A stretch of DNA of 64,000 bases from Candidatus Hodarchaeota archaeon (GTDB taxonomy: Archaea > Asgardarchaeota > Heimdallarchaeia > Hodarchaeales > Hodarchaeaceae): the NCBI GenBank assembly GCA_016839815.1, contig JAEOTM010000057.1:26346-90345 (forward strand). The letters are read 5' to 3'. Position numbers and translations under genes: made by a program. Every line of letters begins with the position of its first letter. The stretch's first letter is position 1. The notes under the pieces were generated by a model. That model made no database searches. It was not told the origin of the DNA and saw nothing but the letters and a program-made list of their open reading frames with translations. Positions 8,099 to 46,737 of this stretch are shown here, one piece after another.

Positions 8099-8123
8099 TG
8101 TGATTCAACAGCTAACTATTTTT

Positions 8124-8825: not shown

Positions 8826-8871
8826 TGGAAATCCCTTGTAAAAGTAGAAGTAGTTTCTTGTTATGAGAAGT

Positions 8872-12352: not shown

Positions 12353-12405
12353 ACTCTGAAGTCAATCCTCCCAACAATCTTAATCGACCAGTTAACAAGT
12401 AAGAT

Positions 12406-13131: not shown

Positions 13132-13294
13132 ATTTCTGATTCATTGTTTCTCTCGAATGTTTCTTTCTTACTTCTTTTGATGAATGCAATTCTTTACAAA
13201 GTTTACACTGAAATATATGAAAAAAGTATTAAAAATGTGTAAACCGCCAGTAGACCTTATATAGAACCCTTTCCCAACTATTACATGATTTATA

Positions 13295-13960
13295 GTGTTT
13301 ATCAGGGAAAAAGAAGTCAATTTTTCAGATTATAATGTCAAATTTCTTCTAGCTTTTCTTTTTGCAGTAATTCTACCTTTCTTGATGGTAAGCACTCTAA
13401 TCATTAATATCTCTTTTAACATTATTTTTTTCCCGTTTACTGTTATCCATGAAGTAGGTCATTTTATTGTAGCTATACTGCTCTTTCCTGAACAAAATCC
13501 TCAATTAAAATTACTTACCTTTAAAGAAGGATTAAAATGCGGATGTGTGACCCTTGGTGGATTAGAAATCTCTTGGGGAACAATTATTCTATTACTATCT
13601 GGATCTGTACTTGTAATATTAACTGTAACAATGGGGATGTGTATTTTAAGCCGCAAAAATAACAAACTAAACCCATACATTCAAAAATATCTTCTATTCG
13701 GCTTACTCTGCGATCTTCCCAATCTTTTTCCTACCTATCCTTCTGAGGGGGTTGTAACCGATGGCTTTCGTACTTGGTTATTTCTTCATGATCTTATCAA
13801 TCTTCCCTACCCAACTCCCCAATTTTCTCTGATCTTTACAGCAATTGCTTCAGTTATAATATTCTATTCTTCCTTTTATCTTGGACTCTTTTTATTTGAA
13901 ATTCTACTAAATTCCGTTGGAAAATGGCAAAACCAGTCAATATATCCTTCGGTATCCTGA
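13295..13960 (+). CDS. Membrane Zn-metallopeptidase-like protein (M50B-like)
   Basis: HEVGH within TM context; NLFP...TDG motif. Confidence 0.65.
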   Translation: MFIREKEVNFSDYNVKFLLAFLFAVILPFLMVSTLIINISFNIIFFPFTVIHEVGHFIVAILLFPEQNPQLKLLTFKEGLKCGCVTLGGLEISWGTIILLLSGSVLVILTVTMGMCILSRKNNKLNPYIQKYLLFGLLCDLPNLFPTYPSEGVVTDGFRTWLFLHDLINLPYPTPQFSLIFTAIASVIIFYSSFYLGLFLFEILLNSVGKWQNQSIYPSVS

Positions 13961-14136
13961 TAATCAGTATCTTCACTCTTTTCGGAAACAAAAATTTATG
14001 ATCTGAATGATTTCGTACAAGAATGAGATTCTTATCCCATTTCGTTTGAAAAATTACCCGAAATCTGTAAAAATTTAGTGCAAACTTAGTAAAGTTAAGT
14101 ATATTCACCGAACAGAAGAGAAATTCGTGAACTGTT

Positions 14137-14613
14137 ATGCCATCAGAGGATTATATTATTTCTATGTTCAGGAAAGATGATTGTAAACGGCTTATTCGGT
14201 CTAAACTAAATGCTTTATCTGAATCGGCAACCATACGAGAAGCAATTGATGCACTTCGGTCTCAATGGTCAAGTTATGTCTGTGTATTGGATGAAGAACA
14301 AAATTTAAAGGGAATCATAACAGAGCGGGATATTCTTCGCTTTATTGGGTCAGGTTCATTGGATGAGACTGCTCTCGCAACTACTATCATGAATAGCGAC
14401 TACCATACAATTGAATGTAGAGAATCCATTGCTCAGATCGCTTTAACTCTTTATAAAAATACATTTATGCATTTGCCTATTTTAGATGAAGGAAAGCTTG
14501 TCGGAATTGTCTCTGCACGCGATTTTATACACTATCTAGTCGAATATTTTGCGGAAAGCGTCCATACACTCAAACCAGCTCAACCAACCCAAGAAAGACG
14601 CGAAGGAGCATAA
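14137..14613 (+). CDS. CBS domain pair protein
   Basis: GIITERDIL, HLPILDEGKLVGIVSARD. Confidence 0.9.
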   Translation: MPSEDYIISMFRKDDCKRLIRSKLNALSESATIREAIDALRSQWSSYVCVLDEEQNLKGIITERDILRFIGSGSLDETALATTIMNSDYHTIECRESIAQIALTLYKNTFMHLPILDEGKLVGIVSARDFIHYLVEYFAESVHTLKPAQPTQERREGA

Positions 14614-14654
14614 ATAGCTTCTATATTATTGAGATTATTAATAGAGGAAAATCG

Positions 14655-16556
14655 ATGACTGAGGTCCAAAAACTCGAAAAACGGAAAAAAGGATTTCCTA
14701 AAAAATCTAAAAAAGAACTAGATAGAGTGGTTATTCGTCTAGCGGGTGATAGTGGGGATGGAATGCAACTAGCCGGCTTGAAATTCACTTCCGCATCTGT
14801 AATGTTAGGCAATGATGTTTCTACTTTTCCTGATTATCCTGCAGAGATCCGAGCTCCTCAAGGAACTTTAGCAGGTGTCTCTGGATTTCAGGTACACTTT
14901 TCTGCCACAGAAATTTATACTCCAGGAGATTCCTTGGATACACTCGTTGCAATGAACCCCGCAGCGTTGAAAGTTAACATTCAGGATTTAAAACCAAGTG
15001 GAATATTAATAATTAACAAGGATTCTTTTACTCCAAGAAATTTAACAAAGGCTGGATATTCAACTAGTCCATTAGAGGATGGATCGTTGGAAAATTTCCG
15101 TGTATATCCTGTTAATATAACAAAACTGAATAAAGAGGCAGTAAGCAAAATAGAAGGGATGTCAGGTAAGCAGATCAATCTCACTAGAAATTTCTTTGCA
15201 TTAGGATTAATATCATGGTTGTATGATAGGCCTCTTGACACGACAATCACTTGGATTTCGCAGAAATTTAAAAATCGTCCAACTATCGTAAAAGCTAACA
15301 CAGAAACACTAAAAGCTGGTTTTTACTTTGGGGAGACTAACGAATTTGTACCTGTCCAATACACTGTTCCAAAGGCAATGATGGACCCAGGTTTCTATCG
15401 ATATATTTCAGGGACTCAAGCACTAAGTTTGGGGTTAGCCACTGCTGCTCAACTTGCGAAACGGGAATTATTTTTCGGTGCTTATCCAATCACGCCAGCA
15501 AGTGATTTATTACATGAATTAGTACGGTTAAAGGGGTATGGGATAAAAACCTTTCAAGCTGAAGATGAAATAGCTGCTATTGGCTCAATAATTGGCGCTG
15601 CTTTTGGGGGAAGTATTGGAGTTACTGGAACTTCAGGACCTGGCCTAGCTTTAATGAGTGAAGCACTTGGACTTGCAGTAATTACCGAACTACCACTAGT
15701 TCTAGTGAATGTGCAACGTGCTGGCCCTAGCACAGGAATGCCTACAAAACCCGAACAGAGTGATCTGCTTCAAGTGCTCTTTGGTAGAAATGGAGAATCC
15801 CCACTTCCCGTTTTTGCTCCTGAAACTCCAGGAGATTGTTTTACTCTCGCTATAGAAGCAGTACGAATTGCTTTCAAGTACATGACTCCTGTGGTACTAC
15901 TATCAGATGCGTATTTAGCTAATAATATTGATCCATGGAAGATTCCAAACATCAGTAAATATCCCACAATTGAGATTGTCAATCCAACTGATGCCCCTCA
16001 AGACTCTGAAGGAAGGTACACACCTTATACAAGAGATGAAAATTTAGCACGTCCATATGTTATTCCTGGAACTAAGGGCTTGGAACACAGAATTGGAGGG
16101 CTTGAAAAAGAACAAGTAACTGGAAACGTGAGTTATGATCCAGTAAATCATGAAGAGATGGTAACCCTCAGAGACCAGAAAATCCTTGGTATTTCCCGAG
16201 ATATTCCTCTCCAGACCATTAATGGGCCTTCTGAAGGTGATGTTCTTGTCTTGTCTTGGGGTTCAACTTATGGTGCAGCACATACTGCGTGTGAGAATCT
16301 AAGAAAAAAAGGACTTTCTGTTGCAGATACTAACTTAAGATATCTTAATCCGTTCCCTTCAAATCTCAGAGAGATTGTGAAATCCTACAAACAAATTCTT
16401 ATCCCTGAAATGAACAAAGGACAGTTACAATTCCTTATTCAAGCTCGTTATGCTATCAAAACAGAAAGCATGACAAAAGTGCAAGGAAAACCATTTTATA
16501 TTGAAGAAATTGAAAATAAAATAGAAAAACTTATTATGGGGCTAAATCATGACTAA
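14655..16556 (+). CDS. korA: 2-oxoacid:ferredoxin oxidoreductase alpha (fused gamma-alpha)
   Basis: AGDSGDGMQL, YPITPAS, QAEDEIAA, TSGPG, QRAGPSTG. Confidence 0.95.
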   Translation: MTEVQKLEKRKKGFPKKSKKELDRVVIRLAGDSGDGMQLAGLKFTSASVMLGNDVSTFPDYPAEIRAPQGTLAGVSGFQVHFSATEIYTPGDSLDTLVAMNPAALKVNIQDLKPSGILIINKDSFTPRNLTKAGYSTSPLEDGSLENFRVYPVNITKLNKEAVSKIEGMSGKQINLTRNFFALGLISWLYDRPLDTTITWISQKFKNRPTIVKANTETLKAGFYFGETNEFVPVQYTVPKAMMDPGFYRYISGTQALSLGLATAAQLAKRELFFGAYPITPASDLLHELVRLKGYGIKTFQAEDEIAAIGSIIGAAFGGSIGVTGTSGPGLALMSEALGLAVITELPLVLVNVQRAGPSTGMPTKPEQSDLLQVLFGRNGESPLPVFAPETPGDCFTLAIEAVRIAFKYMTPVVLLSDAYLANNIDPWKIPNISKYPTIEIVNPTDAPQDSEGRYTPYTRDENLARPYVIPGTKGLEHRIGGLEKEQVTGNVSYDPVNHEEMVTLRDQKILGISRDIPLQTINGPSEGDVLVLSWGSTYGAAHTACENLRKKGLSVADTNLRYLNPFPSNLREIVKSYKQILIPEMNKGQLQFLIQARYAIKTESMTKVQGKPFYIEEIENKIEKLIMGLNHD

Positions 16557-32013: not shown

Positions 32014-33423
32014 ATGAACGATGAAAATGATATCTTACTTCGTCAAAGCAAGTGGAATGGACGTAGAGTAGTTTTATTCTACTGGTTTGCCATTGCCTTT
32101 ATGGGTACTGCTGTGGCCGTTGGGTTAGGAACCTCAATTCTTGAACCTACATTCAAGTATGAGGCATTTGACCATAGCACTATCACAGACCCTTGGCATC
32201 CTGAAGACTGTTCTCCTTGTCACGATGAAACAATTGATACATGGAACAACACTTGGCATTCGACCTATGTCGGTGATAAGTTAGTTGTGAATGAAACCCA
32301 TGTCATCCGCTATGGTAACAATCCCTTCATGCCTCCCAGTGTATGGACACTTGAAGAGTTTGCTGCCGAAGGCGGTTGCTGTATGGTAACAAGATGGGAA
32401 AATACTACCCAACCTGGCGATTTAGAACCTTCTGGTGACTTTTGGGATTATGGTATTACCTGTGCTGCCTGTCATGATGAACCTGGAGTTGTTAATGAAG
32501 ATCCTTCCGTCTGTGCTGGTTGTCACCTTCCTGGTGGAAATCAATACGCAGCGTGGGCTCAAAGTGCGCACTCTGATTCACTTGAAGATCTTTTGGCAAG
32601 TCCAGGTGCATCGTCCTACTGTCTTCATTGTATGGCTGGACAAGGTACCTACGCAAACTTAACTGGGGTCGATCCTACTGATTCTAGTCTATCAAGTATT
32701 TACTGTGCTACCTGTCACGATCCTCATGACGCTTCTACAAACTATGATGAAGCATCCGATCATATGGGTCCAAATGGTCATCAATTGAGAGCTGCTACTA
32801 CTAATGAACTTTGTGGAAAATGTCATAGTCAATATGAGTTTATTTCCTCTACGAGTCCAATGAGTATCCATAATGACACTCTGTCGTGTACAGATTGTCA
32901 CGGCTATCGATGGCTCCCAGCATACAATTCTACAGATCGATTCGGAAATCCTGTTGTAGTTCCAGCTGGCTTTGCAAGTATAAACCATACTTGGGAATTT
33001 AGTCCATTCCCTGAGGCTTGTGGTTTATGTCATGGCAATGATAATGCCACAGTTTATGCAACCATGGAAGGTTATATCGGTGATGTTGAAACTTTAATCG
33101 CGCAGTATGATACACTGTTTGAAAACGTTTCAGCAAAAGTCGATGAAGCCAATGATACAAAAGGTGTCGATCAAGCGGAAGTAGACAAAGCCTATGCACT
33201 TCTAGATGAAGCGAAAGACTTGGCTAAAGCATATGATACGGCATTCCACAATCCTGAACTTGCCAAACAAAAAGTACAACTGGCACTGACAAAATTAGAT
33301 GAAGCATATACCATTGCTGTTGATGCAATGGATGCTGCAGATTCAGCGCCTGGATTTGGTTGGATTCTTGGTTTATCTGTATTCGCTGTATTTGCTTTCG
33401 TTATTCGTAAGAAACGACGCTAA
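32014..33423 (+). CDS. Surface multiheme c-type cytochrome with PGF-CTERM-like anchor
   Basis: 7 CXXCH (CSPCH, CAACH, CAGCH, CATCH, CGKCH, CTDCH, CGLCH) plus CLHCM and GGCCM; helical C-terminal domain with FHNP; APGF-TM-RKKRR. Confidence 0.92.
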   Translation: MNDENDILLRQSKWNGRRVVLFYWFAIAFMGTAVAVGLGTSILEPTFKYEAFDHSTITDPWHPEDCSPCHDETIDTWNNTWHSTYVGDKLVVNETHVIRYGNNPFMPPSVWTLEEFAAEGGCCMVTRWENTTQPGDLEPSGDFWDYGITCAACHDEPGVVNEDPSVCAGCHLPGGNQYAAWAQSAHSDSLEDLLASPGASSYCLHCMAGQGTYANLTGVDPTDSSLSSIYCATCHDPHDASTNYDEASDHMGPNGHQLRAATTNELCGKCHSQYEFISSTSPMSIHNDTLSCTDCHGYRWLPAYNSTDRFGNPVVVPAGFASINHTWEFSPFPEACGLCHGNDNATVYATMEGYIGDVETLIAQYDTLFENVSAKVDEANDTKGVDQAEVDKAYALLDEAKDLAKAYDTAFHNPELAKQKVQLALTKLDEAYTIAVDAMDAADSAPGFGWILGLSVFAVFAFVIRKKRR

Positions 33424-33458
33424 GCTAGGGTTGAATAAAAACACTGTACAAGCACAAG

Positions 33459-33495
33459 AACAGTCCTTTTGGACTGTTTCTTTTGTTTTTTTTTT
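33459..33495 (+). terminator. Stem-loop plus poly-T terminator after the cytochrome gene
   Basis: aacagtcc-tttt-ggactgtt followed by long T tracts. Confidence 0.75.
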
Positions 33496-33699
33496 ATTAC
33501 TAGTTGGGGACTGTGAGAGTTATTTTCCTATTTTGTTGCTTAAGTCAAAATCCATGATTTTGAAGCATGAACAATCGTTCATATGATTTCTCACCCCTAA
33601 CCTATCAGTAATCAGTACATAAATAAAATCAACAAATATCTTCCCCAATATCGAGTAAATACACTTTAGAAATTTAAAAATGAAAAAAGATGGAAATCC

Positions 33700-35922
33700 A
33701 TGTCGAAGCAATTATCTCTACGTCCTAATAGAAAAGAATGGGCAATATACTCGTTCCTAACACTCTTCATTCTTGGAGCGTTCCTTCCAAGTTTTCTTAC
33801 TCTTAATTCCTTTCCAACTACTACTAAATCAGAACTAACCCAGTCCTTAAGTCCTTTAGATCATCCAGATCGAACATCTATTGATATTCCCTCTTCCTCT
33901 TTTAAATTAAGTAAGATTTCTCAAGAAGAACCCGAAGCCTACTTTCCTAACTTTCTATATTACTCAATTGAAGTAGCAAATGCCATGATCGATCATTTAT
34001 TTGACAATGACTCTGGTGGATTCTTTACCTCCAAAGATCAGCATTGGCAAGAATCTAGTGTTAATAGTGAAAAAAAGACCTATGACAATGCTCAGGCAAT
34101 CCTTGCTCTTCTCAAACTTGCTGATGCAGTGATAAATAACACTGAGCGAGATTTTGCTCTTGAAATCGCTGATAAAACTGGAACCAACATGATTAATGAA
34201 TTATATGACACAATTTTTGACGGGTTTTTCTTTAGCCAATCTATTCGTTATAAAAGGCCTGGTGTGCAAGGTAAAGCCATCCAAGCTCTCCTTTCTCTTG
34301 CAGAGGCAACTGGAAATCAAACTTATCGAGATTATGCAGTTAGTACGTTTAATTTTATGGATAGATATGGTTGGAATAGCACAGATGGCTATTATTACTA
34401 TATACTTTCACATTCTGGATTTATTCCTGTTGTTAATCCAAGCGCAGAGGATCCTTACGTTCCTTGGGCTCCAAGAGCAGACCATAATGCCATTTTTGGA
34501 GATGCTTTGCTTGATCTTTATGAATATGAATCGAATACAACCTATCTAAATAGAGCCGTTGATATATACAACTTCTTTAACACTACTTGTCGCAATATGA
34601 CAAATGGCTTATTTTATACAGGACTTAATAGTACCTATCATGTGGTCGATCCTGATAGTGCTGATATCTTCATTAATTCTCTTATCCTTGAGTTTCTCGC
34701 CCATTTATATAATGTAACTGGGAACCAAGTGTATTATGATGATTTCTTTCTCCTTCTAAATAGTGTTCTCTTAAATTACTGGGATCAGAGATATGGGGGT
34801 TTTTACGCAACAATTTCTCTGAATACTGGAGGTTCTGTTGATTATAAAAAATATACAGAAAGACAATTTTATGCTATCAGAGCATTAGACAGAGCGTACA
34901 AACTATCGGATAATAGTTTGTTTTATAATCTCATTTTAGATGCATTAGAATTTCTTAATGATAAGCTATACGATAATGATCATGGCGGATATTATCAATT
35001 ATCCAATGAGGATGGGACTGGTGGATTCGAAACATCTTGGAATGATAAGTTTACTGTTACCCAATCACTCTCCATTTATGCCCTCTCAAATCTATGGCTT
35101 TATAGTAAGCCAGGTGTTCTTAATGCATTATGGTCTCCTTCCGCTCCACGGCCAACGGATCCTGTAACTATTCTAATTGCTGCATTTGACTCAGATGGAA
35201 TTTCTAATGTTTTGTTCAACTATTCCATAAATAAGGAGCCATATCATGCAGTCGAAATGGTTCCCCACTCTTTGGTGGGAAACATGTACAATACATCCTT
35301 AGATCCTCACGCTGATAGTACAAGTGTGAATTTCAATATAATTGTTAACGACACATTGGGAAACCAAGTTGTTCGTGGCAATTATTTCTTTGTGTGGCAG
35401 GCTGATCTTTTTCCTCCGAATGTTGTCGAAATTGGTTTTTTTCCATCATTAGAAATCCCTGTACATAAAGAATTTTCGATTACTGTAAGTGCTCAAGATG
35501 TTCCTTCTCAAGGAAGAGTTAGGTACGTACGTATACGCTACCATCGCTCGGGTCAATCTGAGAAGTCAGAATCCCTTGTACAAATTGATACTCATATTTG
35601 GCAGATTACATTCCCAGAAGGTTTACCAACCCCAGGGACTTATGCTTATTACTTTGAATCCACTGATGATATGTTAAATACTGGGTGGAGTCATAAAAGC
35701 TATTTCTATATTCTCGGCCATCAAGAATCCACACCTTTTGAGCTGGTGATTGGTTTGCTAGCCGTTGTAGGTATTTTTATCCCTGCTGGACTATATACAT
35801 ACGTGGAATATAAGAAAAAAGATGCTCGTAAGACTCTCAAGAGCAGAAGAGAGGTTAGATATAGAAAACGAAGTACTTCAAGTATAAATAAAAGAACACG
35901 ACGAGGTACAAAAAGAATATAA
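33700..35922 (+). CDS. Membrane-anchored (alpha/alpha)6-barrel protein (AGE/GH76-like) with Ig-like domains
   Basis: Repeated D...GGF/Y helical units, KxxYDNAQAI, beta-rich C-terminal domains, TM and basic tail. Confidence 0.6.
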   Translation: MSKQLSLRPNRKEWAIYSFLTLFILGAFLPSFLTLNSFPTTTKSELTQSLSPLDHPDRTSIDIPSSSFKLSKISQEEPEAYFPNFLYYSIEVANAMIDHLFDNDSGGFFTSKDQHWQESSVNSEKKTYDNAQAILALLKLADAVINNTERDFALEIADKTGTNMINELYDTIFDGFFFSQSIRYKRPGVQGKAIQALLSLAEATGNQTYRDYAVSTFNFMDRYGWNSTDGYYYYILSHSGFIPVVNPSAEDPYVPWAPRADHNAIFGDALLDLYEYESNTTYLNRAVDIYNFFNTTCRNMTNGLFYTGLNSTYHVVDPDSADIFINSLILEFLAHLYNVTGNQVYYDDFFLLLNSVLLNYWDQRYGGFYATISLNTGGSVDYKKYTERQFYAIRALDRAYKLSDNSLFYNLILDALEFLNDKLYDNDHGGYYQLSNEDGTGGFETSWNDKFTVTQSLSIYALSNLWLYSKPGVLNALWSPSAPRPTDPVTILIAAFDSDGISNVLFNYSINKEPYHAVEMVPHSLVGNMYNTSLDPHADSTSVNFNIIVNDTLGNQVVRGNYFFVWQADLFPPNVVEIGFFPSLEIPVHKEFSITVSAQDVPSQGRVRYVRIRYHRSGQSEKSESLVQIDTHIWQITFPEGLPTPGTYAYYFESTDDMLNTGWSHKSYFYILGHQESTPFELVIGLLAVVGIFIPAGLYTYVEYKKKDARKTLKSRREVRYRKRSTSSINKRTRRGTKRI

Positions 35923-35940
35923 AACTTTGGAGATATTACA

Positions 35941-38289
35941 ATGATTTACATTGGTTTTGGAACGTTTGGTATAGATTTAGGGGCGATTATTCTAGTCATC
36001 AGCTTAGTTGCGTTTATTCTTGATGCCGTATTTGTCTTACTTGGTAAATATGTTGAAAAATGGGAAATATATTCTGAGATGAGTTTGTCTACTGGGATGG
36101 TTGCCCTTCTCATTGCATTTCTTTATTTCGCTTTTTCTGTCGTGACAAACGATTATACCTTTTTCTATGTCAGTGAATATGTAAATAATGATATGGATTT
36201 CTTCTTCAAATTATCCGCCCTCTGGAGTGGACAAGCAGGAAGTTATTTCTTTTGGGCATTCCTTATTGGTGTAGCCTACTATATCTTCAGATTGCTATTT
36301 CGTGAATATGCTCATGAACCCCTCTTTTGGCGAGCTTTTGCATTAGCTGCAATTCAAGTTGCTGTGTTATTGCTGTTAGCTGTAATGAGTAACCCTTTCA
36401 AGCTAAATAAATCCATTCGCTCGGATGGACTTGGACTTAATCCCTTTTTAATGAATATCTGGAATGTTATTCACCCGCCTGTTATCTTCATTGGATATGC
36501 TTTATGTTTAATTCCCATGGTGATCGCTATTGCTCGAATATCACTGCTTGAAGACGGAAAGGTTCCTGACTTCGAAGGTAAACAAAAATTGGACTCTTTC
36601 TTTGAATTTACAGTCTCTGCTGCTTGGTTAATCTTGAGTTCTGGAATCATTGTTGGGGGGTACTGGGCATATATTACCCTTGGATGGGGTGGATTCTGGG
36701 CCTGGGATCCTGTAGAAACAGCCTCCCTTGTTCCTTGGTTATTTATCACACTCTATTATCACGGAAAACCATTTTTACGGAAACATGAATATTTAAATAA
36801 CTATATTGTCAGTATGAGCTACGTGGGTGCATTATTTGTTACATACATTACACGGGGTGGAATAATTAATAGTGTCCACGCTTTCGTTCCAGGAGCAGGA
36901 CTTGAAACAATATTAGAACACCCATTTTCAATCTTGAAAGACATCCCATTCTTGGATATACTCCATCCATTACTCAAGGATATTCCTTTTATTCCTAGAA
37001 ATAGTTTCATTATGAGCTTTATTCTCCGATTCATTCCTGAAGAACGAATATTGATTCTTTTCATACTTATTCTTACATCATTTCTCCTTCCTCATATCCT
37101 TGGATTTACTAGAAGAGAGATAGGTACAATTCCCAGATTAATTGGAAGAGATGACTTAAAAGCTTCTCGTACGCGAATGACTGCCATAAAAATATCGTTT
37201 ATTGCAGGTTTAATTGGCACTTATGTTATCGTTTTTGCTCTGATTACTCCTGTTATCTATGATATGTTGGGATATTTAGTCACACTCAGCAATGATGGTT
37301 TCAATGGAAGAATTATCATCGACAAACCGATTTACAATACAATAATTGCAGTGTTTGGAGGTGCTATGCTACTTGCTCAATTCTTCTGTACGTTTTTCCC
37401 ACGAATATCCATCAACAGAAAATTCCAATTATTGACTGGAGGAGTCGCTGCAGGTATTATTTTCTCTGTTACTGGCTATTTCTATAGGACGGGCTCATTC
37501 AAATCTTTCTTTAGCTCTAGTAATCCTATTGTATCCATTTTAAGTAACTTCTGGACCTCAAGTGAAAAAGCAAACTTAGTTCTACCCTTAATCATTATTG
37601 GGATTATTGGATTAATCTGGGAGTTTATTCAGGTGGCTTTGAAAGAAGAAAAACATTTTATCCGGAAAACTTCCCAAGTAATGCTCCACTTGTCCTTTCT
37701 AGTTATTATTCTTGGTGCTTTAATGAGTGCAAATATGACCAATTCGCAATTAGTTATTGGTTATAATGGTGATCAGATTGAAATTACTGGTTCTTCATTA
37801 ACAATAACGATCTTAGATTTAGAAAGGATTATTCCTGAATCTGGACAACATAGTGTTGAATATAATACACGATTTATGATATCCTCAGGTTCAAATGTGA
37901 TTGGATTTGGAATTAGCTCCCTTTATTGGGATACGGCCTATGAAAGGTTTGGGATCAACAATCGTCAAGGACAGGACGTGACAATTATCACCAATTTATT
38001 CTCCGACATTTATGTTGTGTCAGTTTGGGATCCCAATTTAGATTTAAACCTATATAATCATCCTCTCTTTGGTTTCACTGGTGTTGCACTGCAGGTCAAG
38101 ATCATCCCATATGTGAATATTCTCTGGGCTGGATGTATTCTATTGCATTTTGCTATCATCCCCCTGACGGTGGGAAGATTTTTTTCTTTGAAAGATATTA
38201 TGAAACCCAAGGATGAGCAAGAGAAAAACATTAAACAAAATGAAGGAGACGGAACGAATTCAGCAAATGGTGATATAAAAAATGGCTAG
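35941..38289 (+). CDS. ccmF: Cytochrome c heme lyase CcmF
   Basis: WSGQAGS, GLNP...IHPP, WAYITLGWGGFWAWDPVET, SVHAF. Confidence 0.93.
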   Translation: MIYIGFGTFGIDLGAIILVISLVAFILDAVFVLLGKYVEKWEIYSEMSLSTGMVALLIAFLYFAFSVVTNDYTFFYVSEYVNNDMDFFFKLSALWSGQAGSYFFWAFLIGVAYYIFRLLFREYAHEPLFWRAFALAAIQVAVLLLLAVMSNPFKLNKSIRSDGLGLNPFLMNIWNVIHPPVIFIGYALCLIPMVIAIARISLLEDGKVPDFEGKQKLDSFFEFTVSAAWLILSSGIIVGGYWAYITLGWGGFWAWDPVETASLVPWLFITLYYHGKPFLRKHEYLNNYIVSMSYVGALFVTYITRGGIINSVHAFVPGAGLETILEHPFSILKDIPFLDILHPLLKDIPFIPRNSFIMSFILRFIPEERILILFILILTSFLLPHILGFTRREIGTIPRLIGRDDLKASRTRMTAIKISFIAGLIGTYVIVFALITPVIYDMLGYLVTLSNDGFNGRIIIDKPIYNTIIAVFGGAMLLAQFFCTFFPRISINRKFQLLTGGVAAGIIFSVTGYFYRTGSFKSFFSSSNPIVSILSNFWTSSEKANLVLPLIIIGIIGLIWEFIQVALKEEKHFIRKTSQVMLHLSFLVIILGALMSANMTNSQLVIGYNGDQIEITGSSLTITILDLERIIPESGQHSVEYNTRFMISSGSNVIGFGISSLYWDTAYERFGINNRQGQDVTIITNLFSDIYVVSVWDPNLDLNLYNHPLFGFTGVALQVKIIPYVNILWAGCILLHFAIIPLTVGRFFSLKDIMKPKDEQEKNIKQNEGDGTNSANGDIKNG

Positions 38290-38674
38290 TACAAAAAATA
38301 TCATCTTAGCGGGTGGTATAATCGCATTATGCGCTGGTTCACTATTTATCTTATTTGTTGGATCCTCAGTTCCGATCTACAGTGTGAAGGAATTAATGGA
38401 TGATCCAAATGCAGAATCCTATATTGATCGAAGAATTCAAATTGTAGGTAATGTGACTACAATAACAAATATCACCCATTTCACCATTACTGATCCTGAG
38501 ATTGTAGATCCTTCGTTAAAGATTCAAGTTGTAGCACCAGTCACTGTTGTAAGGCCACAAAGATTTGCCCTAGATAAAACAGTAGTGGTGGAAGGAAAAC
38601 TCCTCTCTATTGATGGTATCTGGTTATTCAAAGCTTCCATGATAAGTACAAAGTGCCCATCGAAGTATGAGTGA
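38282..38674 (+). CDS. ccmE: Heme chaperone CcmE (CXXXY variant)
   Basis: N-terminal TM, VVVEG, KCPSKYE. Confidence 0.92.
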   Translation: MASTKNIILAGGIIALCAGSLFILFVGSSVPIYSVKELMDDPNAESYIDRRIQIVGNVTTITNITHFTITDPEIVDPSLKIQVVAPVTVVRPQRFALDKTVVVEGKLLSIDGIWLFKASMISTKCPSKYE

Positions 38675-38775
38675 TCTTAGACATTCAATTGACTTGTCAA
38701 TTACTCTTCCCAGAAGTAAACCTTAATAAATATACTAAATCTGTATTTAATTACATACTAATGGAGCAAAAGACA

Positions 38776-38877
38776 ATGCCTCGACCAGTTAAAAGAGTAG
38801 ACACAGAATCAAAGGAAAAAGCAACTGAAGATGCTGAAAAGAATAAAGACACGGTACCTATTTCAAAACATTATTAA
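38776..38877 (+). CDS. Putative 33-aa charged peptide heading the JAB-E1-E2-E2 operon
   Basis: MPRPVKRVDTESKEKATEDAEKNKDTVPISKHY*. GGAG lies 9 nt before ATG 38776 (alternative ATG 38761) and a TATA-like ttaataaa is at about 38723. Confidence 0.55.
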   Translation: MPRPVKRVDTESKEKATEDAEKNKDTVPISKHY

Positions 38878-38924: not shown

Positions 38925-39872
38925 TTGCATTCATATCAAGGGGAATCCATATTTATCCAAATTGATCAGGATGTGTACGATGAGATGGTTAAGGAGGGTT
39001 TACAGTGGCCACGTATCGAAACAGGAGGGATGCTATTCGGAAATCTCATTGAAGATGAGAATCATTTAGTAATTGAAATTCTTAAAACACAGATACCTTC
39101 CGATGAAAACTGTATCCGTGAATCAGCATATTTTGAGATTAATCCCGATTACGCCAAGCAAATCTTATCTCAGGAAGAACTTGACTATTTAGGGAATTGG
39201 CATAAGCATCCTGGATATGGTGGACCGTCTCATGGTGATCACCAACAGATTCATGATTTTTTCCTTAATAATCCCCACTTAGATGTTATATTGACTTTTA
39301 TCCTAAATTTCCATTCCGAACGAGAGTATGAACCGATAATTGAAGTTTACTTTAGAGAGAAGCAGAATATGGTTGAAACTTCCTTCATCACAAGATCAGT
39401 ACCACCAAGTAATCTTAGTTTTACTCCTACTACTATACATGAACGAACACCAGTAATCAGAGAAAAAGGAGTATCAACGGATATTCTATCGAGAGTAAAA
39501 CACGAATTAGTGAACATTTTTGACCATCTTTCGGCAATTCACGATATACAGGATTATCCTGGTCAAGCTCCAGATGAGAAAGTCTTATCATTCCCCTATC
39601 AATGCCAAATTAGTCATTTAGATCAATTAATATACGTAAATCTTATGATATCAATTTCTTTTCCCCCTGAATTCCCTAAGGGTAAGCTTTACTTTGATAT
39701 TTCATCAGAGGACATGTCAAAAAATTTTACTTTTAAAACTCATACCGCGGAAACCTTAAATGATATGGAACTTGTACATCCATTTCTATCTCTTTTAAAA
39801 TCTGATATTGAAGATGATTTACCTGTACTCCTTGAAAAGCCCTTATGGAGAGTAATACAAAATAATTTGTGA
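38925..39872 (+). CDS. JAB/MPN+ metallo-isopeptidase fused to a C-terminal UBC/RWD-like domain
   Basis: IETGGMLFG...YLGNWHKHPGYGGPSHGD (intact E-HxH-S-D); C-terminal ISISFPPEFPKG. Confidence 0.88.
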   Translation: MHSYQGESIFIQIDQDVYDEMVKEGLQWPRIETGGMLFGNLIEDENHLVIEILKTQIPSDENCIRESAYFEINPDYAKQILSQEELDYLGNWHKHPGYGGPSHGDHQQIHDFFLNNPHLDVILTFILNFHSEREYEPIIEVYFREKQNMVETSFITRSVPPSNLSFTPTTIHERTPVIREKGVSTDILSRVKHELVNIFDHLSAIHDIQDYPGQAPDEKVLSFPYQCQISHLDQLIYVNLMISISFPPEFPKGKLYFDISSEDMSKNFTFKTHTAETLNDMELVHPFLSLLKSDIEDDLPVLLEKPLWRVIQNNL

Positions 39873-41113
39873 TAAAAATGAAATTTTTACTCTATCCAGA
39901 ACTTGAAGCACGATTAAAAAACATACCTTTCCAAGAGGATCCTTTACCCCTATTTGGACGGTCTTTTGATGATTTTACTGTATTTCATTTGGTTGATTTG
40001 ACATCTACCAGCAATGATATTTATCAAATCGGATATCTCTCGACAGAAACAACAAATTCCAATTTTTCCATGACTTTTCCCTTTATTAATCTGACTCTTG
40101 ATAATAAAACATTTAAGATAACAAAGATCACCATTCATAGAAATAAAGACAATATTGAATCATTAGATGAGTTTGAAATAGAATCCATTGATCTTGAACG
40201 ACTATTTGTACGTATTGATCAAGAAGAAACCCCTTTAAATATATTAAGAACAAAAACGGTCGCCATTATTGGAATGGGATCAGGTGGTTCCCTTTTGGCT
40301 TTATATCTGGCAAAAACAGGTATTAAGAGCTTTATCCTCATCGATGATGACCAACTTGAAGTCCATAATATTATACGTCACATTTCTGATCTTTCCCAGC
40401 TCGGTAGGTACAAAACTAAAGCAGTTAAAGACTTTATTCGAAAGAGATTACCAGAAACTCAAATAAAAACTATAGAACGAAAATTTGTATTGCACACAAG
40501 AGCTGATGCAGACTTTTTCCTTGAGATCTTCAAAGATATTGATCTACTAATTGCTGTTTCCGGAGAACACGACGTTAACTTTGCAATCAACGATTTTGTA
40601 CATATAAATGACTTGAAATTTCCTGTTATCTATGCAGGAACATTTGATGGAGTAAAAGGGGGATTAATGTTCAAAGTGGATAAGCGTGAAGATGATCTCT
40701 GTTATCATTGCGTTTATGCTGATACTTTAACTTATCCTTTGTCAGACGGTGACCCTCAAGGAAGTATTCCGACAACAAGTGAGCTAGAGAAGAAGATTGT
40801 ATATGATCGGACCATGCAAGAACAACTTGCTCAACCAGGATTAGGATTAGATATTGATAACATAACTCTCCTCCTCTCAAAATTTTGCTTGGATACTCTG
40901 CTTAAGGGTCATGAACATGGATTATATCACTTCCCTTTCAATTTTTATCTCTGGTATAACAGAACTATCTTAAAACCTGATTCAGAGGAGATTAAGTTTG
41001 AAGGACTCGAATTGTGTTACTATGAGGATTTAGAGAAGAGTAAGGAATGTCCCTTCCACGGAAATCAGGTTGGATCAGATTCAGACACTGATAAAACTGA
41101 ATTTAATCGTTAA
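39869..41113 (+). CDS. ThiF/MoeB/E1-family adenylyltransferase
   Basis: IIGMGSGGS, LIDDDQLEVHNIIRH, GRYKT, Zn site CYHC...CPFH, QPGLGLDI. Confidence 0.92.
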   Translation: MIKMKFLLYPELEARLKNIPFQEDPLPLFGRSFDDFTVFHLVDLTSTSNDIYQIGYLSTETTNSNFSMTFPFINLTLDNKTFKITKITIHRNKDNIESLDEFEIESIDLERLFVRIDQEETPLNILRTKTVAIIGMGSGGSLLALYLAKTGIKSFILIDDDQLEVHNIIRHISDLSQLGRYKTKAVKDFIRKRLPETQIKTIERKFVLHTRADADFFLEIFKDIDLLIAVSGEHDVNFAINDFVHINDLKFPVIYAGTFDGVKGGLMFKVDKREDDLCYHCVYADTLTYPLSDGDPQGSIPTTSELEKKIVYDRTMQEQLAQPGLGLDIDNITLLLSKFCLDTLLKGHEHGLYHFPFNFYLWYNRTILKPDSEEIKFEGLELCYYEDLEKSKECPFHGNQVGSDSDTDKTEFNR

Positions 41114-41141: not shown

Positions 41142-41576
41142 TTGTCACTTAGAGGTAACTTAGTCGATAGGGAATTGGAAAGTTTACGGAAAATTTTTCC
41201 TGATATACATAAGAAAGACTTTCTTCAGCTGAAAAACAAGAATAAATGTGTACAAGTCAGCTTTATTACTACAGGCAAATATGCCTGTGGACATTTCGAT
41301 GTACTTATCGAATTTCCTTATAATTATCCAGTAGGATCACCCCTTGTGTGGGTTCAAAGACCCCGAATCCCAAAAAATACGCCACACGTATATGGATGGG
41401 ATAAAGATGGACACGCAAGTATTTGTTATCTTAGACCCAAGAAAGATTGGCGTATGCACTATAGTTCATATGAAACAGCTCTCATGGTAGAAGCTTGGTT
41501 GAAGACATATTGCAGATGGACAAAAACAAGCATTTGGGATTGGCCAGAAGCAGGTGTACTTGATCACATATTTTAA
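41142..41576 (+). CDS. E2/UBC-fold conjugating enzyme (paralog 1)
   Basis: LIEFPYNYPVGSPLVW, PHVY...SICYLRPKKDW with catalytic Cys. Confidence 0.85.
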   Translation: MSLRGNLVDRELESLRKIFPDIHKKDFLQLKNKNKCVQVSFITTGKYACGHFDVLIEFPYNYPVGSPLVWVQRPRIPKNTPHVYGWDKDGHASICYLRPKKDWRMHYSSYETALMVEAWLKTYCRWTKTSIWDWPEAGVLDHIF

Positions 41577-41607: not shown

Positions 41608-42012
41608 TTGAGACGGACAGTTGAGAATGAATTACATGAACTAAAGGGAGTATTTCCAGGATTAACTCGTAAAGATTTCTACTATCTTGACAATGGAAAT
41701 ATTGCTGTACAGGTAAAGTATTCCACCACTGGACAGTATGCTCATGGTACATTTACTGTATTGATTGAGTTCCCCCATAATTATCCGAATGCTCCACCCC
41801 GAGCTTGGATTATGGAACCAACCATTTCCAGTCGTACACATCATATCTATGGACGAGATAAGTACGGACATACTGAAATATGTTACCTTCGACCTCAAAA
41901 AGATTGGCACTTCACCTTTACATCTTATGATGCAGCAATTATGATTCAAACTTGGATTTGGGCATACTGTCGATGGAGAAAGGTTGGTATTTGGGATTGG
42001 AAAGAAGCTTAA
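41608..42012 (+). CDS. E2/UBC-fold conjugating enzyme (paralog 2)
   Basis: LIEFPHNYPNAPPRAW, HHIY...EICYLRPQKDW with catalytic Cys. Confidence 0.85.
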   Translation: MRRTVENELHELKGVFPGLTRKDFYYLDNGNIAVQVKYSTTGQYAHGTFTVLIEFPHNYPNAPPRAWIMEPTISSRTHHIYGRDKYGHTEICYLRPQKDWHFTFTSYDAAIMIQTWIWAYCRWRKVGIWDWKEA

Positions 42013-42390: not shown

Positions 42391-43350
42391 ATGAATATCC
42401 AAGAAGCCGTTGACACTTGTAACACCATTTTAAGTGAAGTAAACAAACATATAATTGGGAAGGACTCAGTTTTAAAACATGTTATGCTTTGTTTACTCGC
42501 AGATGGGCATATATTATTTGAAGATTATCCAGGACTAGCTAAAACCATGATCTGTAGATCTTTTGCCTCTGTTCTTGGATGTGACTTTAATCGGATTCAA
42601 TTTACGCCGGATCTTTTACCCCAAGATCTTACTGGGTCTGAAATTTATAATCAAAAGTCAAATGACTTTGAATTCAAACCTGGTCCCTTATTTGCTGATA
42701 TTATTTTAGCCGATGAAATCAACAGAGCAACTCCAAAGACTCAGAGTGCTTTATTGGAAGCTATGGGTGAATACCAAGTGTCTATTGGAGGTAATACACA
42801 TCAGCTTATTAGTGATGAGAAACCTTTCGTAGTAGTTGCAACACAGAATCCACTTGAATTAGAAGGAACATTTGCTCTTCCTGAGGCTCAAGTCGATCGA
42901 TTTCTAGCTAAGATTCGAATTGGTTATCCATCAAAACTTGATGAAGCGAAAATTCTTACTAATCGCATTGATCGGAAATCTAAATCCTTTACTCTCCCCC
43001 AAATTATTACAAAAGGTGTGTTTCGTGAAATGCAAAAGGTTGTAGAAACTGTCTCTGTTTCTGATGAGATCAAATCTTATATCGTAGATATCGTTGATTA
43101 TACTCGAAAAGCTCCTCAGGTAAGAGTAGGAGCTTCTCCACGCGGATCGTTAGATCTTATGTCATTAGCTAGAGCTAATGCAGTACTAAAGGGGAGAGAT
43201 TACGTTATTCCTCACGATGTCAAAGAATTAGCCACTCTAACCTTAGCTCATCGGATTATCCTAGACATCGGATCATTTATTGCAGGTGGTTCTTCAGAAG
43301 AAATTGTTTCAAGGATTTTAACAAAAGTTGACGCACCCAGGAAAGAGTAG
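42391..43350 (+). CDS. moxR: MoxR-family AAA+ ATPase
   Basis: EDYPGLAKT, RIQFTPDLLP, DEINRA, ATQNPLE, GASPRGS. Confidence 0.95.
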   Translation: MNIQEAVDTCNTILSEVNKHIIGKDSVLKHVMLCLLADGHILFEDYPGLAKTMICRSFASVLGCDFNRIQFTPDLLPQDLTGSEIYNQKSNDFEFKPGPLFADIILADEINRATPKTQSALLEAMGEYQVSIGGNTHQLISDEKPFVVVATQNPLELEGTFALPEAQVDRFLAKIRIGYPSKLDEAKILTNRIDRKSKSFTLPQIITKGVFREMQKVVETVSVSDEIKSYIVDIVDYTRKAPQVRVGASPRGSLDLMSLARANAVLKGRDYVIPHDVKELATLTLAHRIILDIGSFIAGGSSEEIVSRILTKVDAPRKE

Positions 43351-43352
43351 TT

Positions 43353-44246
43353 GTGGTTGATAAGAGATTCGAACCGCTGAGAAGAAAGGAAACTGTGCTC
43401 TTCTTTTTCCTCCTTCTATGCTTGGCGATTTTCCAAATAACTATGGAATTATTACATGGGAGAAGGCAAGAAAATCCAATTCTCCAGTTTGATCTTCCTA
43501 TCTTCGAGATAATTGCCATAGCGATTCCACTCTTAATTCTAATTTGGATTTTATTAAAATTAGAATTCCCCTTTCGAGTCTTCAAACCGATTTCAATCTG
43601 GTTAGTCGTAATGCTGCTCGTATTCATGATGGCATCATTGATAACAGGTTCAGATTATACTCCACAGGACTTCAACCCTTTTGAGACATCAACCGAAGAT
43701 ATCACTCAAGTAACAACGTTTATTACAGAAAATCCCACGGAGACCGATATATCCGAGACAACAACCACTACTCGAAAAACACGATCACCACTTTTGACCT
43801 TACCGATGCTTGAAGATATTCAAAACTCATTCTTTATCATCCTGATTTTGATATCAGCTGTTATTATCCTTCGAACAGATAGAAAAAGGAAGATGATGCC
43901 TCCTAAATCCACCCATTCTATAGAAGAATTTCAGAAGGTACGTAAAGAATTCGAAGGTGCTCCCAGAAACATAATTGAGTGCTATTATCAAGCTTCTGAC
44001 CACTTAGAAGGAAAAGGTGCAGATAAATCCTACCATCTAACTCCATTCGAATTTAAGGATGACGTAGGGGAGAAAAAATTAATTTCCGATGATAGCTTCA
44101 ATGAGTTAACAAATTTATTTACCGAAGCGAAATTTTCAGAACATGAGATATCAAACATAACTGTCCATCGAGCCAAAGAGGTCTCGCAGCATATTATTTT
44201 TGAATCCTCTCAGAACGATACAGATACTTCGGAGGAAGAAGAATGA
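43353..44246 (+). CDS. DUF4129-like membrane protein
   Basis: TM helices and T-rich linker; C-terminal LTPFEF...LTNLFTEAKFS; MoxR operon context. Confidence 0.75.
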   Translation: MVDKRFEPLRRKETVLFFFLLLCLAIFQITMELLHGRRQENPILQFDLPIFEIIAIAIPLLILIWILLKLEFPFRVFKPISIWLVVMLLVFMMASLITGSDYTPQDFNPFETSTEDITQVTTFITENPTETDISETTTTTRKTRSPLLTLPMLEDIQNSFFIILILISAVIILRTDRKRKMMPPKSTHSIEEFQKVRKEFEGAPRNIIECYYQASDHLEGKGADKSYHLTPFEFKDDVGEKKLISDDSFNELTNLFTEAKFSEHEISNITVHRAKEVSQHIIFESSQNDTDTSEEEE

Positions 44247-44842
44247 GTTTGACCTTTGATATAGTAGATTTCTTATTCTCATTCTATTTTTACATCTTTC
44301 TTTGGATTTTATTAGTAATTTTAACCTTTTTTCTATTGAGAAAACTCCTACAAGATTATAAACATCAACGATTAATAACGAATTCAAAAAACCTGGTTGA
44401 ATCCGAAGATAAGAAATTGAAATTGTCAGAAATTAGATTTTTCCTTGAGCAAGATAGTCATTTCCTTGATAAGCAATTCAAAAAAGGGATGAGTGAGTAC
44501 AAAGATCGTTCTTTAACAAATAGCCCCTTATTTGAGAATATATTTGACCTTTTAAATACGAGAAATATCAAGAAAGACTTTGTAATTCTGCTAGCAACTG
44601 AAATGAAAAAATTGAGAGGCAGAAATGACTTTTTGACTGATGCACTAGGGTCTGAATTAAATTTATTTATTGATAACCCTGATTCGTGGATAGAACGCTT
44701 CATAATTGAATCTTCTAATACGAAAGAGCAGGAAGACCAGTTAAGAAAGGTTAGGGCTATCTTAAATCAGTATATAAAAAAGTTTATCGAAACAATGAAG
44801 ATCCCCGAATTGAATTTTTATTTACAAAAAGACCTAACATGA
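44243..44842 (+). CDS. Hypothetical single-TM protein of the MoxR operon
   Basis: Overlapping start/stop with the upstream gene; N-terminal TM. Confidence 0.7.
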   Translation: MSLTFDIVDFLFSFYFYIFLWILLVILTFFLLRKLLQDYKHQRLITNSKNLVESEDKKLKLSEIRFFLEQDSHFLDKQFKKGMSEYKDRSLTNSPLFENIFDLLNTRNIKKDFVILLATEMKKLRGRNDFLTDALGSELNLFIDNPDSWIERFIIESSNTKEQEDQLRKVRAILNQYIKKFIETMKIPELNFYLQKDLT

Positions 44843-44851
44843 GGTAATCCC

Positions 44852-46144
44852 TTGAACAACTACAAACAAATTTTGTTTTTAACGACCTCATTACTGATCA
44901 TTGTACTTCTCTCTTTATTAACAGGGGCTCCAACCCTATCTGGTATTGCTTTACCGATATTGTGTTATCTTTTCTTCTTTTTGTTAACCCAAGAGGTCAC
45001 CATTGATAAAGTTCAGATTACTCGGACTATTTCATCAGACCGGTGTTATATCGGTGATGAGATTGAAGTAAAACTGACCATCACAAATAACGGTCCTGCT
45101 ATTCCTTTACTCGAAATAGTTGATCTGACTGCGGAAAGATGTACAATCTCCTCTGGAAGTAATCATTTACAGATCCAAATTGAAGAAAATGAGACAATTG
45201 AACGGACATATAAATTGAAACTTCATCATCGGGGAAGATACGCAATCGGTCCTCTTTTTCTGAAGGGAAGTGATCTTTTTGACAAAAAGTCAAATTATCG
45301 AAAAATCAGTTCGGTTCAATTAGTTACATGTGTACCTGACTTCGTAAAGCTACAAACTCTACCAATTTCACGTGATAAACTGCTACCATTAGGAGGGTCT
45401 ATTCCTTCCCGTATCTATAAGGGAAGAGACTTTGATTTCCAAGGAGTGAGACCTTATCAACCAAATGATGAATTACGCTCAATAAATTGGAGAGTCACTG
45501 CAAAATATAATACTCTGGCCACGAATGAGTATGCACTAAATCAACAATCTCATATCATTATTATTCTGGATCATTCTTCTTCAACAGAGCATATACTCGA
45601 AATAGCTATCAAAGCTACTCTTTCTATAGCGGAATGGGGAATTAGACAACGATCAAAAGTAGAGCTTCTAGCTATTGGAGATTATGTTCGAATTATTAAA
45701 CCATCAGCAAACAAACGCCAGCTTTTATTAATTACTGAACGTTTAGTAGATCTAGAAGCAATTTCTCCACAGTTTGACAATATTATCGAACCTCAAATTA
45801 AGAATAGAGTCTTTCCGAGGTTAGACCAACCTGGTATTCTATTTATTATCTCTCCTTTAGCAGATAGGGCAATCAACAATTCTGTTAAGAAGATAATAGA
45901 ATCAAGAAAGCAAGTAATATGGGTTAATCCAAGATTAGATTATGTTTATGAAACAATAGATGCATCTAAACTCCAAAGAAAAGTTTCAAAAGAGTTGGTT
46001 GAATCTTTCACAAATGTTTTACTGAATCTCATTAGAATCAACACTCAACATGAGTTTGAAAAGATACCTAGATTTAACTGGTATCCCGAAGGTCCTGATT
46101 ACGACTCTCTGAGTTCATTAAGTAAACTGGGTGCACAAAATTGA
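44852..46144 (+). CDS. DUF58 (vWA-like) protein
   Basis: DFQGVRPYQPNDELRSINWRVTAK, ILDHSSS. Confidence 0.9.
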   Translation: MNNYKQILFLTTSLLIIVLLSLLTGAPTLSGIALPILCYLFFFLLTQEVTIDKVQITRTISSDRCYIGDEIEVKLTITNNGPAIPLLEIVDLTAERCTISSGSNHLQIQIEENETIERTYKLKLHHRGRYAIGPLFLKGSDLFDKKSNYRKISSVQLVTCVPDFVKLQTLPISRDKLLPLGGSIPSRIYKGRDFDFQGVRPYQPNDELRSINWRVTAKYNTLATNEYALNQQSHIIIILDHSSSTEHILEIAIKATLSIAEWGIRQRSKVELLAIGDYVRIIKPSANKRQLLLITERLVDLEAISPQFDNIIEPQIKNRVFPRLDQPGILFIISPLADRAINNSVKKIIESRKQVIWVNPRLDYVYETIDASKLQRKVSKELVESFTNVLLNLIRINTQHEFEKIPRFNWYPEGPDYDSLSSLSKLGAQN

Positions 46145-46737
46145 GATTATCCATCAAATTGTTATTAAGTAAACTACTTCTGTTGGCAACGTGGTTGCCA
46201 TTTGGGTATTTCCCACTTTTTATTGGTTTGAGTAACTATATCTGGACTAGGGGATCAGATTTGTTACCAGTATTCTTAACTGAAGCATTCTTGATTGCGC
46301 TCGGGGTTAATGGAATATCAGGACTTATTACCTTTAAGAAACAACTCTATGCGAAAGAGATGGCACTCGCTATCCTAATAATAGGAATCATCCCAAATCT
46401 CCAAACATCATTACTTGCAGCATTAAATGTGACATTAGTTTTCTTTTTTTGGAATATATGGGTATTGGGGGAAAAATATGCCCAATTTAATAGTGAATAT
46501 AATTATCCACAGGGAAGTATTGAGAAACAAGATATTAATATCGCCTATCAGCAACAGCTCCAAGGTTTTTTTATTATTGGCTGGTTGATTCTATTAGGGT
46601 CATGGATGATTATTTTTATCAGTGAAACCATCGTTGTAGATCTTGGTGCAACAATGACCATTTCATTCTTTTTAGGTGCAATTATCCTTCTTCTTATATT
46701 ACTCTCAGAACGCTTAGCACTATTTCCCAAACTCTAG
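46141..46737 (+). CDS. Hypothetical multi-TM protein
   Basis: Multiple hydrophobic helices; translationally coupled to DUF58. Confidence 0.7.
   Translation: MRLSIKLLLSKLLLLATWLPFGYFPLFIGLSNYIWTRGSDLLPVFLTEAFLIALGVNGISGLITFKKQLYAKEMALAILIIGIIPNLQTSLLAALNVTLVFFFWNIWVLGEKYAQFNSEYNYPQGSIEKQDINIAYQQQLQGFFIIGWLILLGSWMIIFISETIVVDLGATMTISFFLGAIILLLILLSERLALFPKL

Follow-up and report, generated by a model that had tools for sequence, protein, structure and literature searches.

A glycine-free 33-residue peptide as candidate protein tag of an E1-E2-JAB operon in Hodarchaeales archaea

A five-gene operon from an archaeon of the Hodarchaeales, often regarded as the Asgard lineage nearest to eukaryotes, begins with a 33-aa open reading frame (ORF) that codon comparisons confirm as a real protein-coding gene under strong purifying selection. 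By analogy with CBASS, we judge it probable, with considerable room for doubt, that the encoded peptide is a stand-alone, fold-less, Gly-free tag that works with its neighboring enzymes as the CD-NTase tail does on Cap2/Cap3.

RESULTS

The peptide ORF is a conserved gene

Within the 64,000-nucleotide stretch analyzed here (the window), five co-oriented genes were found in the order peptide, JAB (315 aa), E1/ThiF (414 aa), E2-like a (144 aa), and E2-like b (134 aa) (Table 1). Since short ORFs preceded by GGAG are common by chance in this genome (~8.6 per 64 kb), the gene is proved by conservation and not by local signals. The peptide was 85-100% identical across 12 Hodarchaeales genomes of the genus, each copy lying directly 5' of the JAB gene, and its neighbors were less conserved (JAB, 44-68%; E1, 54-76% identity). 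For the two genus genomes with the E1 and no peptide match (G017 and G014), the contigs end inside the operon. At codon positions 1, 2, and 3 of the genus homologs, 7, 4, and 30 of 33 columns varied, with mismatch rates of 0.10, 0.07, and 0.45, respectively. The NG86 method gave a dN of 0.097, a dS of 1.65, and a dN/dS of ~0.06 (85 computable pairs, 15 sequences), and the peptide frame was the sole frame free of stops in all 15 sequences.

The start codon was ATG among the genus homologs, with TTG in G009, and the TATA-like box was kept as AAAGATTAATAAAT or near variants in 12 genus genomes despite diverging flanks. An earlier note on this DNA had described a small, operon-first ORF with its own GGAG and TATA-like box, and the conservation of start, GGAG, and box bears this out. 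A sigma-70 promoter scan was at chance level, with a model that does not cover archaeal promoters. A longer start (68-aa or MEQKT-extended form) was rejected, as relatives do not share the ATG found in frame 15 nt farther 5' and G018 carries a TGA in that frame at the same place; the start is therefore set at 38776.

The peptide is 45% charged, and its hydropathy of 0.33, against a boundary of 0.42, puts it on the disordered side of a charge-hydropathy prediction. It had been rightly characterized beforehand as charged, disordered-looking, and ending in VPISKHY instead of GG. Searches of Pfam, NCBIfam, and PADLOC returned no match for the peptide and the ESM Atlas no usable match, which alone is not evidence of novelty. 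A non-coding reading of the segment, as a conserved leader, a structured RNA, or a chance ORF, could draw on this lack of matches in Pfam, NCBIfam, and PADLOC and on the chance frequency of GGAG-preceded ORFs. It is opposed by the third-position excess of mismatches, the low dN/dS, the single frame open in 15 of 15 sequences, and a protein-level motif preserved across several archaeal lineages. The codon pattern already refutes it, and we assign it next to no probability.

Table 1. Features of the operon (window positions) and tails assigned by eye at related Tyr-type E1 loci
Feature	Location	Strand	Remarks
Archaeal promoter-like box, AAA then TTAATAAAT	38718..38731 (TTAATAAAT at 38723-38731)	+	~45 nt 5' of the ATG; putative
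Shine-Dalgarno GGAG	38763..38766	+	~10 nt 5' of the start in 12/12 genus homologs
33-aa peptide ORF, candidate modifier tag	38776..38877	+	ATG start; ends VPISKHY; Gly-free; predicted disordered
JAB/MPN+ metallopeptidase with Cys-less C-terminal alpha/beta domain (FPPEFP motif)	38925..39872	+	Pfam Prok-JAB 5e-7; start approximate
E1/ThiF adenylase	39869..41113	+	Pfam ThiF 2e-24; beta-rich N-terminal domain of ~105 aa
E2-like protein a (His82, Cys95)	41142..41576	+	Weak UQ_con/RWD matches; PADLOC E2 1e-7; homologs with Pfam E2-CBASS
E2-like protein b, paralog of a (His79, Cys92)	41608..42012	+	UQ_con 3e-5; PADLOC E2 6.5e-9
Free tail TWY	L116
Free tail AWY+A	L110, L119
Free tail TFY+6	L089
Free tail GFF+1-4	L096, L104, L108, L123, L130
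Free tail RFA+S	L052		62-aa peptide
Free tail EWG+GA	L107
Free tail GEY	L161		Mesorhizobium plasmid
Candidate tag at E2 N terminus, WY tail	L053:2357-2920, L103:198-1286, L105:2404-3660
Candidate tag at E1 N terminus, GFF	L102:78-1391
Candidate tag at E1 N terminus, MFA	L088:3497-4909
Candidate tag at E1 N terminus, MFS	L160:3437-4888

Enzymes and surroundings of the operon

The JAB, the E1, and the E2s retain their key residues. In the JAB, E32, H93, H95, S102, and D105 were invariant in an alignment with 17 homologs (A6); its closest homologs come from Heimdallarchaeota B3_Heim and Hodarchaeota metagenome-assembled genomes. The AlphaFold model (pLDDT 87.5) matched Rpn11/BRCC36-type JAMMs in Foldseek, and the C-terminal domain appears E2/RWD-like, by motif only. 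In the E1, the nucleotide loop, the N-x-x-R-H motif, the Lys, and the Zn site are intact. The crossover-loop Cys is missing, with none between the Zn motif and PGLGLD, and Tyr312 in this loop was invariant in alignments A1 and A3; in the wider alignment A5 of 139 sequences, 90% or more have it. The E1 model is of low confidence at the crossover loop (pLDDT under 50 at residues 309-314); the N-terminal domain was modeled mostly as strands with one helix, and the structural matches span residues 113-403. CBASS Cap2 was the top match of the E1 both among PDB sequences and in Foldseek; MccB and PaaA were also among the PDB sequence matches. In a wider structural search, UBA5, UBA3, MoeB, Atg7, MccB, and Cap2 ranked so closely that the fold alone cannot separate a tag from a RiPP. 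The His and Cys of both E2s are conserved, likewise in E2s across the E1 clade.

The cassette lies here between ccmF/ccmE-like genes and a MoxR ATPase gene; its neighbors differ among relatives and, in Hodarchaeales, are variable housekeeping genes. No conserved effector or target gene was found in the operon across 12 Hodarchaeales loci and the distant clade loci. Positions 32014-38674 of the window encode a multiheme cytochrome c with several CxxCH motifs, then a 740-aa protein that looks secreted, a CcmF-like protein, and CcmE, the last ending in a CPSKY motif, and ccmA/ccmB-like genes are located near 7409-8870. Positions 42391-46737 contain the MoxR AAA ATPase gene, followed by genes for membrane proteins and a DUF58-like gene. 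This MoxR/DUF58-like block is also found 3' of the cassette in G002 and G018 and is absent there in more distant members of the genus.

Distribution and C-terminal motif of the peptide

In the tree, the E1 of the locus falls in a tight clade (support 100/100), which a score gap in profile searches separates from a much larger family, with roughly 2,500 related E1s. Within the Asgard phylum, the clade was found only in this genus (400 genomes searched). It was also present in another archaeal class (4 genomes out of 301, of which three carry archaeal amoA and are thus ammonia oxidizers), on three very acidic contigs (L060, L061, and L163) labeled halophile-like from acidic composition alone, and on several other contigs. 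A search of viral contigs with the E1 query found no E1 of the peptide-linked clade, and a search of plasmids yielded distant family members alone.

Of the clade loci, 23 have 1.5 kb or more of upstream DNA, and every one of these has the peptide 5' of the JAB gene (22 recognized by pattern and L060 by HMM and gene map); the set is partly redundant and represents ~6 lineages. A search for a small ORF with a conserved C-terminal motif upstream of homologous JAB-E1 genes had been proposed with the earlier note, and its outcome was positive in these loci. The homologs are 32-54 aa long, with a middle part that varies in length and sequence across lineages. In an 11-sequence alignment, the N-terminal MPR, one central Asp, and a His followed by Tyr or Phe were invariant; the C-terminal motif of the peptide is P-x-x-[KED]-H-Y. 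Many homologs end exactly at His-Tyr, others carry 1-6 further variable residues (S, RN, GN, RQ, SA, FLL, KLIHHV, or LRYHEP after the His-aromatic pair), and none has a stop before this pair. The presence of 0-6 variable residues after an invariant His-aromatic pair suggests a modifier precursor trimmed by the JAB, as with precursors of ubiquitin-like proteins (Ubls). From these sequences we infer a JAB cut site after His-Tyr/Phe, with cleavage between His and Tyr as the alternative. A genome-wide scan detected the tail motif once, in the peptide itself. Neither the variable extensions nor the Tyr-for-Cys swap in the E1 had been pointed out in the earlier note.

Two variant arrangements were observed. 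In the halophile-like L061 and L163, three E2 paralogs on the opposite strand flank both sides of the peptide-JAB-E1 unit. In L051 (132-2162), a 676-aa JAB-E1 fusion directly follows a peptide ending in KHY+RQ.

Tails in the wider Tyr-type E1 family

Related Tyr-type E1 loci carry small non-ubiquitin proteins with their own short tails, either free or as candidate tags fused to an E2 or E1 N terminus (Table 1). In L103 and L105, the tag part has Cys-rich zinc-finger-like repeats. Tail type tracks the E1 tree (H[YF] clade, 100/100; GFF clade, 99/94), and well-supported groups unite fused and free forms that share a tail: GFF with 99/94 and WY with 89/87, the FA/FS group reaching only 89/63. A tail fused to the N terminus of an E1 or E2 would need a protease cut, as in BubAB. 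These sequence patterns support the reading of the tail as substrate, in which K-H-Y may be aligned, as basic, ring, and terminal residue, with the R-F-A that ends the Enterobacter cloacae CD-NTase tail; the peptide at L052 has RFA as well, followed by S. TIR, nuclease, patatin, or caspase-like genes adjoin E1 members of the wider family.

Three Asgard loci (L148:109-3002, L150, and L151:52-2852, in G193, G185, and G142) are CBASS-like, with a probable CD-NTase C terminus, an E2-E1 fusion, and a JAB. Their E1s have a crossover-loop Tyr and no Cys, the upstream tails end in TYG+EE, RFG+N, and IFG+K, and the proteins may be Cap2 variants using oxyester chemistry. Four wider Tyr-family E1s of a VGL-x-SD subgroup (L109, L127, L132, and L133) are found on contigs without a prokaryote-like operon and could be eukaryotic (animal-associated) sequences.

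Other ubiquitin-type loci and the predicted E1-peptide complex

The genome also encodes ubiquitin-family genes and several GG-type Ubls, so that the enzymes might use a canonical ubiquitin-like protein in trans while the peptide has an unrelated job. However, all three complete other E1s of the genome (3/3) adjoin their own GG-type Ubl and branch apart from the peptide-linked E1 in the tree, and the peptide and its E1 clade co-occur without exception where upstream DNA exists. The dedicated Ubl of each other complete E1, together with the uniqueness of the tail motif in the genome, makes an in-trans Ubl very improbable. The modifier position that the earlier note had assigned to the peptide is upheld by the strict co-occurrence with the E1 clade, the invariant His-aromatic pair, and the GG-type Ubls belonging to the other E1s. 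Three further Ubl/E1 loci were located in the genome (G000), on contigs C7 (about 12400-15200), C122, and C135; the C7 locus comprises two Ubl-like genes ending in STAG+WN and STAG, then an E1 gene, and then an E2-like gene.

A complex of the E1 dimer, ATP, and the peptide was predicted with a score of 0.42 against 0.00 for the best control. The runs agreed on at least 82% of contacts, and the partner pLDDT was at least 42. Among 80 solved pairs, 58 attained the score mark, just 7 of them at 0.60 or under; among 110 mismatched pairs, 2 attained it, both at 0.60 or under. The prediction thus lends weak support to E1-peptide binding, and since it gives no contacts, it does not indicate which peptide end binds.

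DISCUSSION

In the model that we favor, the operon encodes a self-contained E1-E2-JAB conjugation system whose modifier is the peptide, which thereby amounts to a CD-NTase tail that stands alone. The JAB would trim residues beyond His-Tyr/Phe and later take the tag off. The E1 would adenylate the carboxylate of the C-terminal Tyr, and the tag would move via an oxyester on Tyr312, as in Bub, or directly onto the E2 Cys, from which the E2s would ligate it to amines of target proteins in an E3-free manner. The Pro-Arg conserved at the N terminus probably serves in recognition or else accepts chains. The strongest argument against the model is a chemical one, namely the bulky Tyr terminus. To our knowledge, the E1 substrates characterized so far have small terminal residues: Gly, Ala, or, for MccB, Asn. 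In Vibrio cholerae cGAS, a bulky C-terminal residue (G436E) broke function (10.1101/2022.03.31.486616). Together, the small-residue ends and the G436E defect imply that a Tyr terminus would need a remodeled E1 pocket.

The main rival to the tag model is a RiPP-like precursor, for which the E1 would adenylate the C terminus and the product would be the modified peptide itself, cyclized head to tail via the N-terminal Pro, polymerized, or coupled to a lipid, a nucleic acid, or a small molecule. The conservation of both peptide ends (MPR and His-aromatic) is expected of cyclization or of MccB-type N-terminus recognition, and the E1 lacks the catalytic Cys like MccB and PaaA, both among its PDB sequence matches; these two features keep such an outcome in play. 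In addition, the entire peptide is near-invariant within the genus. By contrast, its middle varies across lineages (32-54 aa), the two His/Cys E2s and the intact JAB constitute a transfer-and-removal set absent from MccB/PaaA clusters, conserved genes for export, immunity, or tailoring are missing around the cassette, and Cap2 is the top match of the E1 by sequence and by Foldseek. We regard a RiPP-like product as unlikely, though it deserves to be taken seriously. We give still less credence to a peptide that binds the enzymes untransferred, as a pseudo-substrate, inhibitor, scaffold, or operon leader peptide, with the true substrate elsewhere. A terminal Tyr is indeed unusual in an E1 substrate, the peptide is operon-first with its own ribosome site, and a binder too would co-evolve with the E1. 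Nevertheless, a processed substrate would better explain the tails fused to E1 or E2 and the variable residues that follow an invariant motif, the tail motif was confined to the peptide in the genome-wide scan, and the peptide is retained in the haloarchaea-like and ammonia-oxidizing archaeal versions of the system.

Extended further, the tag model would add to beta-grasp Ubls and Pup a third class of protein tags, a proposal for which we consider the chances evenly balanced. Its members would be fold-less peptides of 30-100 residues with an aromatic-dipeptide end (HY, HF, WY, or FF), matured by a JAB and ligated to proteins through a Tyr-type E1 oxyester and Cys E2s. The class would span bacteria as well as Asgard, ammonia-oxidizing, and halophile-like archaea, and the CBASS CD-NTase tail would be one member of it that is fused to an enzyme. 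Defense or stress signaling is tentatively put forward as the likeliest role: the patchy distribution, the changing neighbors, the kinship with CBASS, and the TIR, nuclease, patatin, and caspase-like genes beside the wider family point in this direction, whereas no effector is conserved in the peptide-linked E1 clade.

Conjugation of the peptide, if it occurs, would mean that E1-E2 chemistry can do without a ubiquitin fold and without a terminal Gly/Ala. A minimal tag under 4 kDa and a mixed relay from Tyr oxyester to Cys thioester would be a combination absent from the papers found. The earlier note considered a disordered tag on an E1-E2 cascade to be new, which stands in part: Cap2 already transfers the disordered CD-NTase tail, and the new element would be a free-standing tail without an enzyme body and with a bulky aromatic end. 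The model also suggests an unannotated peptide substrate in many orphan E1/E2/JAB operons, and its setting in Hodarchaeales, alongside canonical ubiquitin loci, bears on the diversification of protein-tagging systems.

Comparison with known systems

The operon matches none of types 6a-6e of PMC1779556. Literature searches found no description of it; most subscription papers were outside their coverage, so this is no proof of absence. Type II CBASS, with Cap2 (E2-linker-E1) and Cap3 (JAB), corresponds to operon family 6b (PMC1779556), and Cap2 adenylates and transfers a disordered, non-beta-grasp CD-NTase tail, which ends in GRFA in Enterobacter cloacae (10.1101/2022.03.31.486616). In line with type II CBASS, the E1 finds its top PDB sequence and Foldseek matches in Cap2, the JAB and E2s match CBASS PADLOC models, the E2s have homologs with Pfam E2-CBASS, the candidate substrate is a non-beta-grasp tail predicted to be disordered, and no E3 is present. 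Unlike type II CBASS, the locus is without a CD-NTase or effector in the 12 Hodarchaeales loci and the distant clade loci, and the tail is free-standing, 33 aa long, and ends in His-Tyr, whereas the CBASS tail ends in aromatic-Gly/Ala. In contrast to Cap2, the E1 and the two E2s are encoded by separate genes, and the E1 has Tyr in place of the catalytic Cys.

In Bub systems (6E/DUF6527), the E1 uses an invariant crossover Tyr for transfer, with Y370F abolishing conjugation, and the JAB matures the modifier, including from the modifier-E2 fusion BubAB (10.1101/2024.11.21.623953). The E1 described here likewise lacks a crossover Cys, its invariant Tyr312 is a candidate counterpart of BubCD Y370, and the tail fusions to E2 or E1 in related clades mirror the JAB-cleaved BubAB. 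However, the Bub modifier is a Gly-ended beta-grasp Ubl, whereas the peptide, at 33 aa, is too short for a beta-grasp and is Gly-free; and where Bub employs an E2 with Ser and the BubE protease, the present E2s keep Cys and the operon has no DUF6527 or fifth enzyme gene.

Pup and UBact are small, charged, disordered modifiers that end in GG[E/Q], with PafA and Dop as their enzymes. The peptide is similarly small, charged, and predicted to be disordered, but it has no GG[E/Q] and no Gly, and the operon genes are JAB, E1, E2, and E2, with no PafA/Dop within the operon. The label of a Pup/UBact-like tag, proposed in the earlier note, is therefore not sustained. Like the ThiF-like RiPP adenylases MccB and PaaA, the locus pairs a short peptide with a conserved N terminus and a Cys-less E1-like enzyme; unlike their clusters, which combine a precursor having a reactive Asn or Glu core with export/immunity genes, it includes E2s and a JAB, the peptide does not end in Asn, and transporter or immunity genes are not conserved nearby. 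Adenylases of the MccB/PaaA type also carry an N-terminal RRE or peptide clamp, where the model of the present E1 shows mostly strands with one helix. Bil (BilABCD) and the canonical ubiquitin operons of Asgard archaea and Caldiarchaeum use GG-ended beta-grasp Ubls and Cys E1s. Their layout of modifier, JAB, E1, and E2 is shared here, whereas the peptide is not a beta-grasp, the E1 is Cys-less, and the GG-Ubl loci sit separately in the genome. On the sequence features compared, the system is most like a Cap2/Cap3 module with a Bub-type Tyr E1 and falls outside CBASS, Bub, Pup/UBact, and MccB-type clusters.
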